From Acidimicrobiales bacterium (GTDB taxonomy: Bacteria > Actinomycetota > Acidimicrobiia > Acidimicrobiales > Aldehydirespiratoraceae): DNA of 64,000 nucleotides. The DNA is taken from positions 80,738-144,737 of the forward strand of contig JBMTIM010000001.1 of the NCBI GenBank assembly GCA_049437325.1, read 5' to 3'. Positions within the stretch are counted from its first letter, which is position 1, and each line of letters begins with the position of its first letter. The position numbers and the translations under genes were made by a program. The notes under the pieces were generated by a model. That model had not been told where the DNA came from and ran no database searches. It saw only the letters and a list, made by a program, of their open reading frames with translations. Below are positions 6,351 through 18,999 of this stretch, in pieces.

Positions 6351-8306
6351 GTGGTCGAACGTCTCGGCGATGCCGACGTCCTCTTGGAGGACCTCACCGA
6401 CGAGCAGCGCGACGCGGTCACGACCAGAGCGAGCCCGCTCGCGATCATTGCTGGTGCCGGTTCCGGGAAGACCAGAGTGCTCACCCGCCGCATCGCTTGG
6501 CAGGCCACGACCGGCGCCATCGACCCCCGCAAAGTGCTTGCGGTCACCTTCACCCGACGCGCGGCGGGTGAACTCCGCCGCCGGACCCGAGCGCTCGGTC
6601 TGCGCGACGACATCGCAGCCGGCACCTTTCACTCGATCGCCCTTGCGGTTCTCCGCAACCGGTGGGCCGATGCGGGCCGGAAGCCGCCTGAACTGCTCGA
6701 CCGCCGCATGTCGTTCCTCGCACAACACAATCCGAAGCTCGACCGCGCCACCATTGCCGACATCGACGCCGAGATCGGCTGGTCGCGGGCCCGACTGATC
6801 ACACCGGCTGCCTACCCTGACGCTGCCGCGGCCGCCGGCCGACGGCCCGGCCGCGGGCTCGCGTTCGTGGCGAAGGTGTACGCCGACTACGACGAGGCCA
6901 AACGAACACGGCGGCTTGTCGATTTCGACGACCTCCTCGCCCTGTGTCATGCGACGATGACCCAAGACGAACAGTTCGCCGCTGCGCAACGCTGGCGACA
7001 CCGCCACCTGCTCGTCGACGAGTTTCAGGATGTGAACCCCCTCCAGTTCGCGCTCCTTCAATCGTGGCTCGGCCCGGACTCGACGCTCGTCGTGGTTGGG
7101 GATCCCAACCAAGCCATCTACGGCTGGAACGGCGCAGAACCGGATCTGCTCGACAACATCGGTGATCACCTCCCCGGTACCGCAGTGCTTCGACTCCGCA
7201 CCAACTTTCGGTCGACCCCAGAGATCCTCGGAGCTGCAGCGCGAGTGCTCGGCATCGAACCCCAACCAGCAGCTCGTCCGGCCGGTGATGAACCAACCAT
7301 TCGCGAACTCGACGGCGAGAGCGAGGCGATCGCGATCGCCCGTTCGGTCCGCGGCGCCCACAAGCCGGGCGCTCCATGGCGGCACCAGGCGATCCTCGCC
7401 CGGACCAATGCCCAACTGCCGGCCCTGCGGTCTGCGCTGGAGCGAGCCGGCATTCCGACGCGCTCGCGTGGCGATGGGGCACTGCTCCGCCGACCCGAGA
7501 TCATGGAACTGCTCGACGGGTGGAACGACGACATGCCCCTGAGCGACGTGTTGACGGAGGCATCGATCGACCCACCCGATCACGCCGAGGGTCTCAGCGA
7601 AGAGCGTCGCATGATGGTGCGCGCCTTCCTCGACGTCGCCCGGGGCCACCTCGAACTCGAGCGGCGCGCAACGGTCGCCGACTTCACCGCATCACTTCGC
7701 AACGACGACCGCGTCGACGGTGTCAACGACGGCGTCGACTTGGTGACATTCCACGCCGCCAAGGGTCTTGAATGGCCGATCGTCCATCTTGTCGGAATCG
7801 AAGACGGCTACGTGCCGATCGCCCACGCACGTGGTGTCGCAGCGCGCAGTGAGGAACGTCGGCTTCTCTACGTTGCGGCCACGCGCGCCGAGCGCCAGCT
7901 CCACGTTTCGTGGGCCCGAACTCGAGAGATCGGAAGTTCGCTGGTCGAGCGACACCCATCGCCGTGGATCGACGCATTCCGCGGCGATCCTGCGCCGCTT
8001 CCCGACGAACGCCCCTCGATTGCAAATCTCCGGGCAAAAATCGCAGCCGTTCCCGAGACCGACCTGACCGTGACGGATCGCACCGAACGGGACCATGTCC
8101 GAGACCAGTTGTTGTTGTGGCGCGAGGACGCTGCAGAACGGGCCCGCGTCGCACCGACCGCCGTGCTGTCGGACTGGACCGTCGAGCAACTCTCGATCGA
8201 GCGTCCCTGTCGCATGGACGAGCTCGCTGCCATCGACGGGATGGGCCAGAGCCGCGCTCGACGCTTCGGCCTCAAGCTGCTGGAAATCACCTGCCTCGAC
8301 GACTAG
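6351..8306 (+). CDS. UvrD/PcrA-family SF1 DNA helicase with C-terminal HRDC-like domain (UvrD2-like)
   Basis: Track ORF, 651 aa, GTG start. Helicase motifs AGAGSGKT, LVDEFQDVN, TFHAAKGLEW and YVAATRA. The C-terminal segment ERARVAPTAVLSDWTVEQL...IDGMGQSRARRFG is HRDC-like. Confidence 0.85.
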   Translation: MVERLGDADVLLEDLTDEQRDAVTTRASPLAIIAGAGSGKTRVLTRRIAWQATTGAIDPRKVLAVTFTRRAAGELRRRTRALGLRDDIAAGTFHSIALAVLRNRWADAGRKPPELLDRRMSFLAQHNPKLDRATIADIDAEIGWSRARLITPAAYPDAAAAAGRRPGRGLAFVAKVYADYDEAKRTRRLVDFDDLLALCHATMTQDEQFAAAQRWRHRHLLVDEFQDVNPLQFALLQSWLGPDSTLVVVGDPNQAIYGWNGAEPDLLDNIGDHLPGTAVLRLRTNFRSTPEILGAAARVLGIEPQPAARPAGDEPTIRELDGESEAIAIARSVRGAHKPGAPWRHQAILARTNAQLPALRSALERAGIPTRSRGDGALLRRPEIMELLDGWNDDMPLSDVLTEASIDPPDHAEGLSEERRMMVRAFLDVARGHLELERRATVADFTASLRNDDRVDGVNDGVDLVTFHAAKGLEWPIVHLVGIEDGYVPIAHARGVAARSEERRLLYVAATRAERQLHVSWARTREIGSSLVERHPSPWIDAFRGDPAPLPDERPSIANLRAKIAAVPETDLTVTDRTERDHVRDQLLLWREDAAERARVAPTAVLSDWTVEQLSIERPCRMDELAAIDGMGQSRARRFGLKLLEITCLDD

Positions 8307-10454: not shown

Positions 10455-11249
10455 TCAGCGCTCCACGTCGATGAAGACCGGAGCATGATCGGAGGGTGGG
10501 TCGTCTTTGGGACCCTTGCGTTCGTTGCGATCGATCAGCGCCACGCGCGTTGCATCAGCGACGGATCGCGTGGTCATGAGCAGATCGATTCGCAAGCCCA
10601 TCTTCTTGTGGAAGTTGCCACCGCGGTAGTCCCACCACGAATAGAGACGATCAGCGTCATGGTGTTCACGAAAGACGTCCACCAGGCCCCACGCTTCGAG
10701 CGCAGCGAGCTTGTCGCGCTCGGCCTGGCTGGTGTGTGTCTGCGTTGCGAACGCTTTCGGGTCCCAGCAATCCATGTCGGCCGGGCAGATGTTGTAGTCA
10801 CCCACGACCACAACATCGTCCGCCGGGTCGCACTGCCCGTCGAGATCGCCTGCAAGTCGATCGAGCCATCGCAGCTTGTACTGGTAGTGCTCGTGGTCGA
10901 GCGACCGGCCGTTGGGGACGTAGCAGCTGGCGACGCGGACACCTCCGCATGTCGCCCAGGCGATCCGAGCATCGACGTCAGGGTCGGCACCGTCACCGAA
11001 CCCACCGATCGGGTCGTCGAGGCCGACCTTGCTGAGGATCGCCACGCCGTTCCATTGGCCCTGCCCATGGTGGAAGGACTCGTAACCGAGCGCCTCGAAG
11101 GTGAGTGCCGGAAATGCATCGTCGGCAAGTTTGGTCTCCTGCAAGCACAACACATCGGGTTCGAAGGTCTCCAACCAGCGCTCGACCCGGCCGACTCGGG
11201 CGTTCAAGGAGTTGACATTCCACGTCGCGATCCGCACCCGTCGGACCAT
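10455..11249 (-). CDS. xthA: Exodeoxyribonuclease III / AP endonuclease
   Basis: Last 264 codons of track ORF 10455..11813. Start at MVRRVRIATWNVNSL (CAT 11247-11249). Motifs LCLQETK, VGDYNI and SDHAPV. Confidence 0.9.
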   Translation of the reverse strand: MVRRVRIATWNVNSLNARVGRVERWLETFEPDVLCLQETKLADDAFPALTFEALGYESFHHGQGQWNGVAILSKVGLDDPIGGFGDGADPDVDARIAWATCGGVRVASCYVPNGRSLDHEHYQYKLRWLDRLAGDLDGQCDPADDVVVVGDYNICPADMDCWDPKAFATQTHTSQAERDKLAALEAWGLVDVFREHHDADRLYSWWDYRGGNFHKKMGLRIDLLMTTRSVADATRVALIDRNERKGPKDDPPSDHAPVFIDVER

Positions 11250-14971: not shown

Positions 14972-15685
14972 TCAACGAAGGTCGAGACCGGTGATCGTCT
15001 CCAATTCGACAAGGGCAACGTCCGGGTCGACCACCTTGATGGTCCGCATGCCCATTGCCCTCGCCGGTTTCAGATTGATTCCGAGATCATCGAGAAACAC
15101 ACACTCGAACGGTTCGACCTCGAGCCGCTCACAGGCGATCTCGTAGAAGCGCGGCTCGGGCTTTCGCACGCCCACGACGCTCGACTCGATGATCTCGTCG
15201 AACAGCGCGTGAATCTCGTCGAGTGATTGGCCATCGCCGTCGATCGCCGGTTGCGTGACCATTGCTTCGGTCCCCGAGCCGGACGGGGGCTTGAAGTTGT
15301 TGGTGAGCATCGCCGTTTTGAAGTTCGCAGCACAACGGCGGAGCGCTTCGACCATGGCGGGTCGAATCACACCCCGCAACGCGTCGACGACCCGTTGCGC
15401 ATCGACGTCGAAGCCGAGCGCCCTCGCCTCGGCCTCGAAACGTTCCTTGAAGCCGGCAACCGAGACTTCACCGCGTTCGAAGTGCGCCCATGCGTTGGTA
15501 TCGGGATTCATGGCGTTGATCTGCCGGATCGTGTCACGCGGCAATCCCGCTTCCGCCTCGTACCGATTGAAAGCCTCGAACGGGCTCGACAGGATCACGC
15601 CACCGAAGTCGAAGAGCACCGCTCGGATCACATCGAGCACCCTAATCACCGGCACCACGGCTTCACCTGCTTGACTGACCCCCAT
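14972..15685 (-). CDS. HAD-IA family hydrolase (soluble-epoxide-hydrolase N-terminal phosphatase-like)
   Basis: C-terminal part of track ORF 14972..16369. Motifs AVLFDFGGVI, MLTNN, VGVRKPEPRFYE and FLDDLGINL. Start uncertain: ATG at 15685 would overlap the divergent ATG at 15684, so one of the in-frame GTGs about 27-45 nt downstream (e.g. near 15649) is more likely. Confidence 0.8.
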   Translation of the reverse strand: MGVSQAGEAVVPVIRVLDVIRAVLFDFGGVILSSPFEAFNRYEAEAGLPRDTIRQINAMNPDTNAWAHFERGEVSVAGFKERFEAEARALGFDVDAQRVVDALRGVIRPAMVEALRRCAANFKTAMLTNNFKPPSGSGTEAMVTQPAIDGDGQSLDEIHALFDEIIESSVVGVRKPEPRFYEIACERLEVEPFECVFLDDLGINLKPARAMGMRTIKVVDPDVALVELETITGLDLR

Positions 15686-16838
15686 GCCCAAGCACGCCGT
15701 CGTGGACGGTTCCAACATCGCCACCGAGAGCCGAGCGGAGCCGAGTCTCCAACAATTGCGCGAGGCGGTGGCCACGTTCACGTCCGAGCATGCGTTCGAC
15801 ATCGTGACCGTCATTGTCGATGCATCGTTCGAGCACCGGGTGGCGAAGGCAGAGCAGAACGCGGTACGAGCCGCAATCGATGCGAACGAGATCATCACGC
15901 CGCCAGCAGGTGTGATCGGACGGGGCGACACCTTCATCTTGCAGGTGGCCGACCGGGCCCAGGCGGTGGTCCTTTCCAATGATTCGTTCCAGGAGTTCCA
16001 CGGTACGTTCGGGTGGCTGTTCGACGAGGGTCGCCTGATCGGCGGAAAGCCGATCCCTGGTGTGGGGTGGATCTTCGTGCCGCGCGCGCCGGTTCGCGGA
16101 CCGGTGAGCCGCCGAGCTCGAGCAACAGCAGAGAACACCGAACCGAAGCAGACCAAACCGAAGCAGACGGAACCGAAGACGAACGCCGACAAGAAGCCCA
16201 CCAAACGGGTCGCCAAAAAGGTCGCAAAAAAGGTCGCAAAAAAGGTCGCAAAAACGTCGAACGCGCGTGTACCGACAACGTCCGAACCGGTCGGTCCGGG
16301 TTCGAATCCGCGTGCCGCCTGGAATGCGTTCCGGAGACGCCATCCGGAAGGATCGATGGTGAACGCCACCGTCGACGAGTTCTCGTCCCACGGGGCATAT
16401 GCGACGAGCGGTGCGATGACGCTCTATCTCCCGCTTCGGCTCTTGGGGGATCCGGCGCCGCAGCGAGCCCGAGACGCGGTGACGCTCGGCCAGAGCTTCC
16501 GTGTTGTCATTCACCGCTACGACCACGAGCGTCTCGGCATCGACGCCGGGCTGATTGCCCTCGACGGCTCCGGCAGGAGAACGGCAACCAAGAAGGCAGC
16601 ACCCGGCAAGAAGGCCGCCGCCAAGAAGGCCGCAGCCAAGAAAGCAGCACCTGGCAAGAAAGCCGCCGCCAAGAAGGCAGCAACGAAACCGGCACCCGGC
16701 AAGAAGGCCGCCGCCAAGAAGGCAGCAGCCAAGAAAGCAGCCAAGAAGGCAGCACCTGGCAAGAAAGCCGCCGCCAAGAAGGCAGCACCCACCAAAAAAG
16801 CCGCCGCAACAAGAGGTCGCGCAACACGACGCCGGTGA
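15684..16838 (+). CDS. Zc3h12a-type NYN ribonuclease fused to an S1-like RNA-binding domain and two lysine-rich repeat tracts
   Basis: Track ORF, 384 aa. The N-terminus is collinear with the MCPIP1/Zc3h12a NYN core (AVVDGSNIA ; ITPPAGVIGRGDTFILQVA ; AVVLSNDSFQEF). Then comes a (VAKK)4 linker and an S1-like fold (GSMVNATVDEFSSHGAYATSG...GQSFRVVIHRYDHERLGIDAGL). The tail has KKAAPGKKAAAKKAAA repeats. Confidence 0.8.
   Translation: MPKHAVVDGSNIATESRAEPSLQQLREAVATFTSEHAFDIVTVIVDASFEHRVAKAEQNAVRAAIDANEIITPPAGVIGRGDTFILQVADRAQAVVLSNDSFQEFHGTFGWLFDEGRLIGGKPIPGVGWIFVPRAPVRGPVSRRARATAENTEPKQTKPKQTEPKTNADKKPTKRVAKKVAKKVAKKVAKTSNARVPTTSEPVGPGSNPRAAWNAFRRRHPEGSMVNATVDEFSSHGAYATSGAMTLYLPLRLLGDPAPQRARDAVTLGQSFRVVIHRYDHERLGIDAGLIALDGSGRRTATKKAAPGKKAAAKKAAAKKAAPGKKAAAKKAATKPAPGKKAAAKKAAAKKAAKKAAPGKKAAAKKAAPTKKAAATRGRATRRR
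16209..16256 (+). repeat. Four tandem 12-bp coding repeats (GTCGCNAAAAAG; encodes VAKK x4)
   Basis: gtcgccaaaaag gtcgcaaaaaag gtcgcaaaaaag gtcgcaaaaacg, read directly, inside the NYN-S1 gene. Confidence 0.9.
16587..16812 (+). repeat. Degenerate tandem coding repeats encoding KKAAPGKKAAAKKAAA-type Lys/Ala/Pro tract
   Basis: Recurring aagaaggccgccgccaagaaggcagc / ggcaagaaagccgccgcc units. They are mirrored by the antisense AAFLAA track ORFs 16507..16851 and 16517..16795. Confidence 0.85.
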
Positions 16839-16919: not shown

Positions 16920-18620
16920 ATGGCAGCGCAGTTCATCTACACCATGCACAGGGTCGGCAAGTTCATTCCGCCGAGCCGAGATGTGCTGAAAGACATCACG
17001 CTCTCGTTCTTTCCGGGAGCGAAAATCGGCGTGCTCGGTCCGAACGGTGCCGGCAAGTCGACGCTGCTCAAGATCATGGCGGGCATCGATACCGACTTCA
17101 CGGGAGACGCCAAGCTCGGTGAGGGCTACACCGTCGGCATGCTCGAGCAAGAGCCCGAGCTCGATCCCACCAAGACGGTGCTCGAGAACGTCATGGACGG
17201 CGCCGGTGAAGCATCGGCCCTGCTCGCCGAGTACGACCGGGTACTCGCTGCATGGAGCGACCCCGACGCCGACTTCGAGAAGCTCGGGGCCAAACAGGCC
17301 GACCTCGAGTCCAAGATCGAAGCGATCGGTGCATGGGATCTCCAGCGAACGGTAGAGATCGCAATGGACGCACTCCGCACACCACCAGGCGACTGGAGCG
17401 TGGAGAACCTTTCGGGCGGTGAGATCCGCCGGGTGGCGATGGCTCGCCTACTTCTCGCCAAGCCCGATCTGTTGTTGCTCGACGAGCCGACCAACCATCT
17501 CGACGCCGAATCGGTTGCGTGGCTCGAACGGACCCTGCAGGACTACGCCGGCACCGTGGTGGCGGTCACCCACGACCGCTACTTCCTCGACAACGTTGCC
17601 GGTTGGATCCTCGAACTCGATCATGGCCGGGGCTATCCGTTCGAGGGCAACTATTCGGGCTTTCTGGAACAAAAGGAAGCCCGAATCGCACAGGAGAAGC
17701 GCGACGACGACAAACGGACCCGAACACTCAAGCGCGAACTCGAGTGGGTCCGGATGGCGCCAAAGGCACGCCAGTCGAAGGGAAAGGCTCGCTTGGCGGC
17801 GTACGACAAGTTGCTGGAGGAGGCGAAAGCGGCCGAGGGCCGGGCTGAGGACCTCTCGATCGTCATCCCCGCCAACAAGCGACTGGGAGATGTCGTGATC
17901 GAGGCCGAGCACATCGCCAAAGCCTTCGGAGACAAACTCCTCATCGATGATTTCTCCTTCAGCCTGCCCCCCGCTGGCATCGTCGGAGTCATCGGTGCCA
18001 ACGGCGCCGGGAAGTCCACCCTCTTCAAGATGCTGATCGACGAGTTCGAAGGCACGAACGATCCGGTCGCAGCTCCCGACTCCGGTTCCATCACGCTCGG
18101 CAGCACCGTGCAACTCGGCTACGTCGATCAGAACCGCACGCTCGATCCGCACAAGACCGTCTACGACGAGATCACCGGAGGCGTCGATCACCTCGAGATC
18201 GGGGGACGCGAGATGCACGGGCGCTCCTACGTTGCATCCTTCAACTTCAAGGGTCCCGATCAGCAGAAGATGGTGGGAAACCTCTCCGGCGGCGAGCGCA
18301 ACCGCGTGCATCTGGCCAAGGTCCTCAAGGAGGGCGCCAACGTCCTGCTGCTCGACGAACCGACCAACGACCTCGACATCGACACGCTGCGGGCGCTCGA
18401 GGATGCCATCGAGGCCTACGCCGGTTGTGCGGTCATCGTTTCGCACGACCGGTGGTTCCTCGACCGAGTCGCAACCCACATCGTGGCCTTCGAGGGCGAC
18501 TCACAGGTCCGGTGGTTCGAAGGAAACTTCAGTGATTACGCCGAGTACCGCAAGCGCGAACACGGTGTTGACGCAATGCGCCCCCACCGCATCAAGTACA
18601 AGCCCGTCACCCGGGGATGA
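16920..18620 (+). CDS. ettA: Energy-dependent translational throttle ABC-F ATPase EttA
   Basis: Track ORF 16887..18620. Start at MAAQFIYTMHRVGKFIPP (ATG 16920), the conserved EttA N-terminus. Two ABC cassettes (GPNGAGKST, LSGGE ; GANGAGKST, LSGGERNR). Confidence 0.95.
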   Translation: MAAQFIYTMHRVGKFIPPSRDVLKDITLSFFPGAKIGVLGPNGAGKSTLLKIMAGIDTDFTGDAKLGEGYTVGMLEQEPELDPTKTVLENVMDGAGEASALLAEYDRVLAAWSDPDADFEKLGAKQADLESKIEAIGAWDLQRTVEIAMDALRTPPGDWSVENLSGGEIRRVAMARLLLAKPDLLLLDEPTNHLDAESVAWLERTLQDYAGTVVAVTHDRYFLDNVAGWILELDHGRGYPFEGNYSGFLEQKEARIAQEKRDDDKRTRTLKRELEWVRMAPKARQSKGKARLAAYDKLLEEAKAAEGRAEDLSIVIPANKRLGDVVIEAEHIAKAFGDKLLIDDFSFSLPPAGIVGVIGANGAGKSTLFKMLIDEFEGTNDPVAAPDSGSITLGSTVQLGYVDQNRTLDPHKTVYDEITGGVDHLEIGGREMHGRSYVASFNFKGPDQQKMVGNLSGGERNRVHLAKVLKEGANVLLLDEPTNDLDIDTLRALEDAIEAYAGCAVIVSHDRWFLDRVATHIVAFEGDSQVRWFEGNFSDYAEYRKREHGVDAMRPHRIKYKPVTRG

Positions 18621-18624
18621 ACCA

Positions 18625-18999
18625 CTGATCATCATCGATGCCATGAACGTCCGCGGCTGTGTCCCCGATGGTTGGTGGACCGACAAGGCCGCTGCACTGA
18701 GGCGCCTCGTCACTGCGGTCGCCGAGCACGACTTCGACGGGGAGTGGGTCCTCGTCATCGCAGATGGACACCCGATCGAAGGTGTGCCGGCTGGAACCCG
18801 AGGCGACGTCGAACTGCGCTACGCCAATCGTTCGACCCCCGATGCCGCCGACGACCTCATCGTCGAAACCGTCCTCGCCGAAGAGTCGGCAACGGAGACC
18901 ATCACGGTGGTCACATCCGACCGGGGCTTGCTCGACCGTCTGCCGCCCCATGTGCGGATCGAAGGGTCCAGGTCGTTTCGAAACCGCGTCGGTTGGTGA
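18625..18999 (+). CDS. YacP/Rae1-like NYN-domain protein (predicted ribonuclease); start codon unresolved
   Basis: Tail of track ORF 18232..18999. LIIIDAMNVRG / VLVIADGH / VELRYANRSTPDAADDLIVE / ITVVTSDRGL is collinear with B. subtilis YacP (ILLVDGYNMIG / VIVVFDAH / VEVIFTKENETADERI / IHVATSD). The first ATG (18643) lies inside the catalytic IDAMN motif. Candidate starts are CTG 18625 (GGGGA 8 nt upstream) or GTG 18565 / TTG 18568 inside ettA. Confidence 0.7.
   Translation: MIIIDAMNVRGCVPDGWWTDKAAALRRLVTAVAEHDFDGEWVLVIADGHPIEGVPAGTRGDVELRYANRSTPDAADDLIVETVLAEESATETITVVTSDRGLLDRLPPHVRIEGSRSFRNRVGW

Follow-up and report, generated by a model that had tools for sequence, protein, structure and literature searches.

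A NYN-S1 protein with polycationic tracts in Acidimicrobiia, a putative RNA endonuclease related to Regnase-1

Regnase-1/MCPIP1 (ZC3H12A), ZC3H12B-D, KHNYN and N4BP1 are eukaryotic members of the Pfam family PF11977 (RNase_Zc3h12a). The family also has a separate prokaryotic branch of bacterial and archaeal proteins. The sole statement on this branch that we found in the literature, "unknown function in bacteria", comes from an account that makes no mention of a fusion to an S1 domain, of lysine tails or of a restriction to Acidimicrobiia (Matelska et al. 2017, PMC5499597). Here we describe a bacterial gene of PF11977, which we refer to as NYN-S1, in a 64,000-nucleotide stretch of the genome of an Acidimicrobiales bacterium (assembly GCA_049437325.1, contig JBMTIM010000001.1, positions 80,738 to 144,737 of the forward strand); this whole stretch is called the window below. 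NYN-S1 presumably belongs to the prokaryotic branch. It has in common with the eukaryotic proteins, which are also its best structural matches, the DGSN, xD and SND motifs (equivalents of D141, N144, D226 and D244 of MCPIP1) and, apparently, a design logic in which a NYN endonuclease is joined to a module that binds single-stranded RNA. In contrast to them, it is bacterial, has a glycine at the D225 equivalent and an additional aspartate, Asp46, and carries, in place of the CCCH finger or KH domain of ZC3H12A-D and KHNYN, a conserved beta-hairpin together with an S1 domain and two disordered tracts that are polycationic. We consider it a little better than an even bet that NYN-S1 is a metal-dependent endonuclease of single-stranded RNA, held in place by its polycationic disordered tracts, and an accessory enzyme specific to the Acidimicrobiia lineage.

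Other described systems resemble NYN-S1 in part. Rae1/YacP (PF05991), a ribosome-associated protein of Bacillus subtilis, is also a bacterial protein of NYN type and would be a functional analogue if NYN-S1 docks on ribosomes; it belongs, however, to a different NYN family, and has neither an S1 domain nor basic tails. Consistently, the NYN-S1 protein had no match to PF05991 at E ≤1, and its whole genome had none at E ≤0.001. RNase E/G and RNase Y likewise join an endonuclease to an S1 (RNase E) or KH (RNase Y) module and to disordered charged regions that organise localisation or condensates, but their catalytic folds are unrelated to that of NYN-S1. Protein-only RNase P (PRORP) is the second-best structural match of the NYN domain and falls in the same PRORP/Zc3h12a structural group; NYN-S1, in contrast, lacks the PPR repeats (there is no PPR or PRORP Pfam match in the protein) and the zinc-binding module, and its genome keeps an RNase P RNA. 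Finally, the actinobacterial tails of TopA, Ku and HupB are also Lys/Ala/Pro-rich and of low complexity; short tandem DNA repeats encode them, and their length varies. Those three proteins act on DNA, whereas the tracts of NYN-S1 sit on RNA-type domains, and the likeness is one of composition only.

Domain architecture and active site

NYN-S1 is a real, conserved, single-copy gene of Acidimicrobiia. Its open reading frame (ORF) is not a chance one, since it has thousands of homologues, the closest with an E-value of 1e-187. The start at ATG 15684 is secure, because the stop-to-stop frame around the ORF has 387 codons, three more than the ORF itself, and because the N-terminus MP(K/SG)HAVVDGSN is common to all homologues. 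The 384-residue protein, which contains no cysteine, consists in order of a Zc3h12a-type NYN domain, a disordered basic linker, an S1 OB-fold and a disordered Lys/Ala tail. The features of the gene are as follows.

15684..16838, plus strand: complete NYN-S1 gene, ATG 15684, TGA 16838, 384 codons plus TGA (ORF list)
15690..16133, plus strand: NYN nuclease domain (PIN-like, of Zc3h12a type), residues 3-150, its C-terminal part holding a conserved beta-hairpin at 118-133 (PF11977, family profile, model)
15705..15707, plus strand: codon of Asp8, aligned with MCPIP1 D141 (alignment to 3v32/5h9v)
15819..15821, plus strand: codon of Asp46, an acidic residue particular to the family, which closely follows strand beta2 (strand 40-44 in the model)
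15924..15929, plus strand: codons of Gly81-Asp82, aligned with MCPIP1 D225-D226 ('GrGdafil' aligned with 'CYDDRFIV')
15975..15995, plus strand: codons of the motif S98-N99-D100...E104, aligned with MCPIP1 S-N-D244...D248 (family profile alignment)
16134..16295, plus strand: disordered basic linker, residues 151-204 (model)
16137-16178, plus strand: 15-bp unit repeated 2.8 times, encoding EPKQT/KPKQT repeats in the linker (Tandem Repeats Finder)
16208-16254, plus strand: 12-bp unit repeated 3.9 times with 97% matches, encoding (VAKK)4 in the linker (Tandem Repeats Finder)
16296..16562, plus strand: S1 (OB-fold) RNA-binding domain of the bS1 repeat type with its preceding helix, residues 205-293 (family profile, model)
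16566..16835, plus strand: C-terminal Lys/Ala/Pro tail, disordered, residues 295-384, with RR at its end (model)
16578-16807, plus strand: nested 15/33/45/48/60-bp periodicities in the tail (Tandem Repeats Finder)

In an AlphaFold2 model (44 homologues), the predicted local distance difference test (pLDDT) was mostly above 90 for residues 1-150 and 205-293 and below 50, which is to say predicted disorder, for residues 152-202 and 295-381. Mean column identity across the family is 77% in the NYN domain and 61% in the S1 domain, with the lengths of linker and tail free to vary.

The NYN domain matched PF11977 with 34.6 bits (E 1.9e-8, residues 3-106; gathering score 23), and the same model scored above its cut-off in 44 of 44 homologues tested and in every match of the whole-genome scans. 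Conversely, a profile of the family's NYN domain matched chains of ZC3H12B/A/C and KHNYN at about 1e-4. A Foldseek search of the modelled domain against the PDB returned ZC3H12C/B, MCPIP1 and KHNYN as the best matches (7ndj, 6sjd, 3v33, 5h9v, 9s2d), followed by PRORP; the top matches had a probability of 1.0 and template modelling (TM) scores of 0.55-0.65 normalised to the target, and identity to the eukaryotic chains was 20-25%. There is no CCCH zinc finger directly after the NYN domain, where the cysteine-free protein has in the model the beta-hairpin 118-133 and then the disordered linker. These searches bear out an earlier, sequence-only reading of the window, made without database searches, which had seen a MCPIP1-like NYN core. 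The same reading had called it eukaryote-type; this is a loose term, given the separate prokaryotic branch (PMC5499597) and a family found in Acidimicrobiia only.

The active-site pocket of MCPIP1 is formed by D141, N144, D225, D226, D244 and D248; the mutants D141A, D225A, D226A and D244A are inactive, and Mg2+ is bound directly by D226 (PMC3413151). The family profile pairs these residues with D8, N11, G81, D82, D100 and E104 of NYN-S1, respectively, and the motifs AVVDGSNIA, GRGDTFILQVA and VVLSNDSFQEF are all present in the translated ORF. All 257 family members share D8, N11, G81, D82, S98, D100 and E104, and N99 does not vary in alignments of 44 and of 25 sequences. Asp46 is an aspartate in 255 of the 257, and the aligned site of MCPIP1, ZC3H12B and KHNYN is a proline ('VFVP'). 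Judging from the alignments, three of the four aspartates essential in MCPIP1 are kept (D8, D82 and D100) and the fourth is replaced family-wide. The claim that most catalytic acidic residues are retained is thus right for D8, D82 and D100 and wrong for the D225 equivalent, which is glycine in all 257 sequences. The fixed substitution at G81 looks, from the aligned sequences, like a variant active site rather than decay.

The S1 region of the single NYN-S1 sequence is marginal in direct searches (E 0.11 for the rpsA model TIGR00717, and E 0.11 for PDB chains of bS1). With homologues the assignment becomes clear: PF00575 was matched by 21 of 44 homologues (best 2.9e-8), and a profile of residues 203-296 built from 25 homologues matched bS1 chains at 6e-26 (about 7e-5 for single repeats). 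The alignment to bS1 takes in the 'W..F...HP.G' helix that links bS1 repeats. In the model the OB beta-barrel has five strands (225-233, 237-242, 245-250, 271-280 and 285-289; pLDDT 93-96), and the domain superposes on the domains of Mycobacterium tuberculosis RpsA with a root-mean-square deviation of 1.0-1.3 Å over about 80 residues (Foldseek); E. coli bS1 domains were also matched. Together these results confirm the S1-like OB-fold that had been proposed from the letters of the DNA. The domain is present in 263 of 267 NYN-S1 relatives. The sole other match of the S1 profile in the same genome is a multi-S1 ORF, probably rpsA, whose last repeat matches best.

Repeat tracts and distribution of the family

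The linker repeats had been read by eye as EPKQT/KPKQT units and a (VAKK)4 array of tandem 12-bp units, and Tandem Repeats Finder recovered both (15-bp and 12-bp units, see above). Across the family, linkers measure 16-268 residues with a median lysine plus arginine content of 27%, and tails 0-444 residues (median 123), with medians of 33% lysine plus arginine and 28% alanine. At least 20% lysine plus arginine is found in 193 of 233 family tails, and the tails cannot be aligned between relatives. The description of the tracts as histone-H1-like holds only in part. Both are polycationic and of low complexity, but the tail stays below the cut-offs of the HC2 and Burkholderia H1-like models (PF07382, 26.4 bits versus 40; NF038053, 33.9 versus 80). 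We therefore reject homology to histone H1/HC2, the sub-threshold scores reflecting Lys/Ala composition only.

As anticipated for in-frame DNA repeats, their number is polymorphic. Among five variants with 95-99% identity across residues 1-296, total length ranges from 369 to 394 residues, the VAKK units number 2, 3 or 4, and the tail is built differently, always in frame; short-read assemblies may give wrong tail lengths, but the VAKK array, at 48 bp, is small enough for its length to be reliable. In one homologue, P0041, on a 2.8-Mb contig, the tail reads SQEGTRQEG... for about 90 residues before AKK repeats resume. This stretch corresponds to the same AAG/GCC repeat DNA in another frame, reflecting either a long-read indel error or a real frameshifted allele.

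Long Lys/Ala tracts are rare in the genome, where only four ORFs have them: NYN-S1, TopA (KKKAA repeats at the C-terminus), IF-2 (AKKAT repeats and (KKVV)5 at the N-terminus) and a small 183-residue protein, the last three outside the window (G000 contigs C5, C54 and C58). TopA and IF-2 both act on nucleic acid polymers. The 183-residue protein has an N-terminal AKKA tract and no Pfam match at 1e-5. Reported effects of lysine repeats are higher nucleic-acid affinity and processivity in actinobacterial TopA and a modulation of DNA binding in Ku (PMC5714199, PMC3553676).

A word-indexed protein search gave 6321 proteins with E ≤0.001 among 8000 scored candidates, the top matches being 95-99% identical, and those top matches that bore names were all assigned to Acidimicrobiia or to metagenome bins of Acidimicrobiales. 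When 1.84 billion representatives were searched exhaustively, 300 clusters came out at E ≤1e-30. NYN-S1 is encoded in at least 583 species-representative genomes. Among the best matches listed for the search of the 1.84 billion representatives, and among those listed for a search with a profile of the NYN domain, there were no relatives outside the family, only members or fragments of members. Of the whole genomes sampled within the order, 42 of 48 carry NYN-S1; in the remaining orders of Acidimicrobiia it is present in 14 of 152. About 370 genomes from other classes of Actinomycetota, searched by protein or by Pfam model, gave none. From these sequence searches, the family seems confined to the class Acidimicrobiia. 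The titles of the best 80 loci are of Acidimicrobiia type throughout, apart from a few that are evidently mislabelled. Four loci titled 'Bifidobacterium breve' or 'Bifidobacterium sp.' (L021, L034, L046 and L064) are lake-metagenome bins that carry an Acidimicrobiia-type kgd-HAD-NYN-S1 block, and their titles are probably wrong.

In its own genome (3.04 Mb, 95.7% complete) NYN-S1 is single-copy and has no paralogue. Single copy number, near-universal presence in the order and stable synteny together indicate the behaviour of a housekeeping gene rather than of a mobile or defence gene. Apparent absences, for example from two of the four genomes of one genus and from the only other genome sampled in the window's own family, call for caution. 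Many database entries are truncated within the linker or tail, where contigs seem often to stop; since the repeats break assemblies, apparent absence from draft bins is weak evidence. A length-limited search with the NYN profile (proteins of about 80-260 residues) listed 120 matches, all of them short proteins of the family and many annotated as 'partial'.

Homologues bear names such as 'hypothetical protein', 'NYN domain-containing protein', 'Zc3h12a-like Ribonuclease NYN domain/S1 RNA binding domain' and 'histone H1-like repetitive region-containing protein'. Automatic annotation thus already lists the combination of NYN and S1, and a studied function is absent from the literature that we found. 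Nor did that literature contain a characterised bacterial counterpart, in agreement with the earlier statement that the protein could be matched to no characterised bacterial enzyme.

Proposed function

In the reading we favour, the N-terminal NYN domain would bind Mg2+ or Mn2+ through the acidic cluster of Asp8, Asp82 and Asp100, with Asp46 and Glu104 nearby, and would cut the phosphodiester backbone of single-stranded RNA. The bS1-type S1 domain, on its flexible basic linker, may capture unstructured RNA and feed it to the nuclease. The two polycationic tracts are predicted to bind polyanions without sequence preference and could concentrate the enzyme on RNA-rich structures, be they ribosomes, nascent transcripts on the nucleoid, or a condensate. 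S1 domains of the bS1 type bind single-stranded RNA, and the same capture role is played by the KH domain in KHNYN and N4BP1 and by the CCCH finger in Regnase-1.

That the protein acts as an RNA endonuclease is suggested by its closest solved structures, which are RNA endonucleases only (ZC3H12A/B/C and KHNYN, then PRORP). The invariance of D8, N11, D82, S98, D100 and E104, together with the near-invariance of D46, fits an active enzyme and not a decayed domain. In the parallel sheet of PIN-type domains the strand ends form the catalytic edge, so Asp46 is well placed to stand in for the missing first aspartate of the DD pair. What the sequences and the model show directly are the identities of the domains, the invariant putative active site, the predicted disorder and the charge of the tracts, conservation by vertical descent in single copy, and variation in repeat number; we infer catalytic activity, the preference for RNA over DNA, tethering and physiological targets alike.

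Several points weigh against this reading. The residue equivalent to D225, whose alanine mutant is inactive in MCPIP1 (PMC3413151), is Gly81 in every one of the 257 members, and that Asp46 takes over its role is a guess based on fold topology. A DNA or RNA:DNA-hybrid substrate is also possible, because the gene of a DNA-repair nuclease, xthA, lies about 9 nt downstream in most relatives and because K/A tails are best documented on DNA-binding proteins. The genome encodes RNase E/G, RNase J and an RNase P RNA (171 bits), so that no missing activity calls for NYN-S1. Lastly, our search of the literature on NYN plus S1 in Actinobacteria and on the Pfam name found no experimental study of the NYN-S1 architecture.

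The presence of RNase E/G, RNase J and RNase P RNA led us to reject the idea that NYN-S1 replaces a missing RNase; it rather adds to the usual RNase set. The RNase E/G ORFs of relatives have 630-794 residues, and RNase Y was not found in the genome.

NYN-S1 provides a well-defined, near-universal and single-copy representative, in an order abundant in waters and soils, of the prokaryotic Regnase/Zc3h12a branch whose function is unknown (PMC5499597), with an active site that looks intact but variant and with a built-in S1 domain. If active, it would be a new endonuclease in the small bacterial set that starts RNA decay or surveillance, and a bacterial model for substrate choice of the Regnase type. 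The repeat-encoded tails, which span 0-444 residues and differ between strains by whole units, offer a natural series on the effect of polycationic disorder on a nuclease.

Neighbouring genes and rival explanations

The rival explanations draw largely on the following neighbours of NYN-S1 in the window.

14972..15685, minus strand: HAD-IA phosphatase gene, divergent upstream neighbour, exact start uncertain (TIGR02247, 199 bits)
16920..18620, plus strand: ettA (ABC-F translation factor), downstream neighbour, 81 nt after the NYN-S1 stop (NF008775, 891 bits versus a cut-off of 599)
10458..11249, minus strand: xthA (exodeoxyribonuclease III), 4.4 kb upstream, beyond kgd (TIGR00633, 246 bits versus a cut-off of 99)
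about 6417-8267: uvrD-like gene, one of the genes that lie downstream of NYN-S1 in relatives and are redistributed in the window

In most of the best 80 loci, kgd and the divergent HAD-IA phosphatase gene lie upstream of NYN-S1. Of the 61 loci for which at least 1 kb is available downstream, 43 have xthA as the next gene on the same strand. The two genes are separated by a median of 9 nt, with 40 of the 43 gaps between -11 and +125 nt and several pairs overlapping, and the arrangement spans deeply diverged clades, down to about 41% identity. Such near-zero spacing suggests co-transcription of NYN-S1 and xthA in most lineages, a coupling that goes beyond what had been noted from the window. A recurring block after NYN-S1 (e.g. 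in loci L040, L046, L048 and L060) consists of xthA, a thioesterase-like gene of about 243 residues and a convergent uvrD-like helicase gene; the last lies just past xthA in 44 loci. The window has the other arrangement, with ettA downstream, which is found in 18 of 65 scorable loci, all in clades around the window; the gap is 12-263 nt in the 12 other loci read, and xthA sits in these cases on the far side of kgd. In a tree of NYN-S1 proteins, the ettA and xthA arrangements are clade-structured, with five changes among the 65 scorable rows, so that the loci do not count as independent events. The block of xthA, kgd, HAD, NYN-S1, ettA and the uvrD-like gene consists of unrelated housekeeping genes, and its synteny may in large part be historical.

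One rival explanation, which we hold to be unlikely, makes NYN-S1 a ribosome-associated mRNA surveillance endonuclease, similar in action to Rae1/YacP though not its homologue: docked on the ribosome by its S1 domain and basic tails, it would use the NYN domain to cleave mRNA where ribosomes stall or collide. The S1 domain indeed resembles most closely the mRNA-binding repeats of bS1, down to the inter-repeat helix, and IF-2 in the same genome has tracts of the same K/A and (KKVV)5 kind. EttA is an ABC-F factor that binds the ribosomal E site, and NYN-S1 lies shortly upstream of its gene in the window and in 17 related loci. There is also a precedent, since Rae1, a NYN nuclease, cleaves mRNA at stalled and collided ribosomes, the collisions having been induced with a defective ABC-F protein (PMC12407103, PMC13622287). 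The ettA adjacency, however, is limited to few clades, for which reason we reject ettA as a family-wide partner; xthA is the commoner neighbour, and the region is a slowly rearranging block of housekeeping genes with no evident relation to one another (kgd, HAD, xthA, uvrD-like and ettA). Moreover, NYN-S1 has no sequence similarity to PF05991, and its docking on the ribosome is putative.

The frequent xthA neighbour would instead fit a nucleoid-bound nuclease acting with exonuclease III on DNA or on RNA:DNA hybrids, such as R-loops, flaps or transcripts at lesions, with the H1-like tails binding DNA and the OB-fold the displaced single strand. We give this explanation, too, a low probability. 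In its favour are the closeness, shared strand and phylogenetic depth of the NYN-S1/xthA pair, and the uvrD-like helicase gene past xthA. PIN-like folds include DNA flap nucleases (PMC5499597), and Lys/Ala tails occur on the DNA enzymes TopA and Ku (PMC5714199, PMC3553676), TopA of this genome among them. On the other hand, the link to xthA was lost in the window's clade while NYN-S1 was kept, kgd and HAD are equally conserved neighbours in a synteny that may be historical, and the 43 loci are phylogenetically clustered. To our knowledge, moreover, every characterised NYN relative (Regnase-1 to -4, KHNYN, N4BP1 and PRORP) acts on RNA, as does every characterised S1 domain of the bS1 type. The tight xthA link in most lineages nevertheless gives the family a concrete phenotype to look for, namely sensitivity to DNA damage or R-loops.

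A more speculative combination, to which we attach rather little belief, would be a bacterial endonuclease of a new type working where RNA meets DNA or the ribosome. Held on nucleoid or polysomes, perhaps in a condensate, it would cut nascent or stalled transcripts and, with exonuclease III co-expressed in most lineages, clear RNA from damaged or R-loop DNA. Its site of D8, D46, D82 and D100, one per strand end, would be intermediate between the classical PIN site and that of the eukaryotic Regnase/PRORP group.

It is very unlikely that NYN-S1 is a catalytically inactive binder or chaperone of nucleic acids, its NYN fold serving as a binding or oligomerisation module. The glycine found throughout the family in place of the D225 essential to MCPIP1 (PMC3413151) speaks for such a protein, but the pocket's other acidic and polar residues show no variation at all, and there is the extra invariant Asp46. 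Canonical PIN nucleases have one acidic residue per strand end and no DD pair, a pattern that NYN-S1 would fit, and dead nuclease domains normally lose several such residues.

Many prokaryotic PIN-like and NYN domains are toxins (PMC5499597), but a toxin or anti-phage defence nuclease is barely credible here and we reject it, since there is no antitoxin-sized gene adjacent to NYN-S1 and no match to PADLOC models, and the gene is single-copy, near-universal in the order and in conserved chromosomal synteny.

Scans for promoters, terminators and Rfam families around NYN-S1 gave no sigma-70-like sites and no Rfam matches, and terminator-like sites only antisense, inside the repeats. A small ORF right after ettA (18625-18999) scored 20.8 bits against PF05991, below the cut-off of 24.6; it had no NCBIfam match and is not similar to the NYN-S1 nuclease profile. 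At 15683-15686, the palindrome CATG holds both the ATG of NYN-S1 and the first ATG at which the divergent HAD phosphatase gene could begin. The model of the HAD family, however, aligns from residue 20 only, and a later start, with a gap of about 40-55 nt, is equally possible. In the close relatives L003, L004 and L008, similarity in the HAD coding sequence reaches within 2-16 nt of the NYN-S1 start. If the start at CATG is real, the promoter of each gene would lie inside the other.

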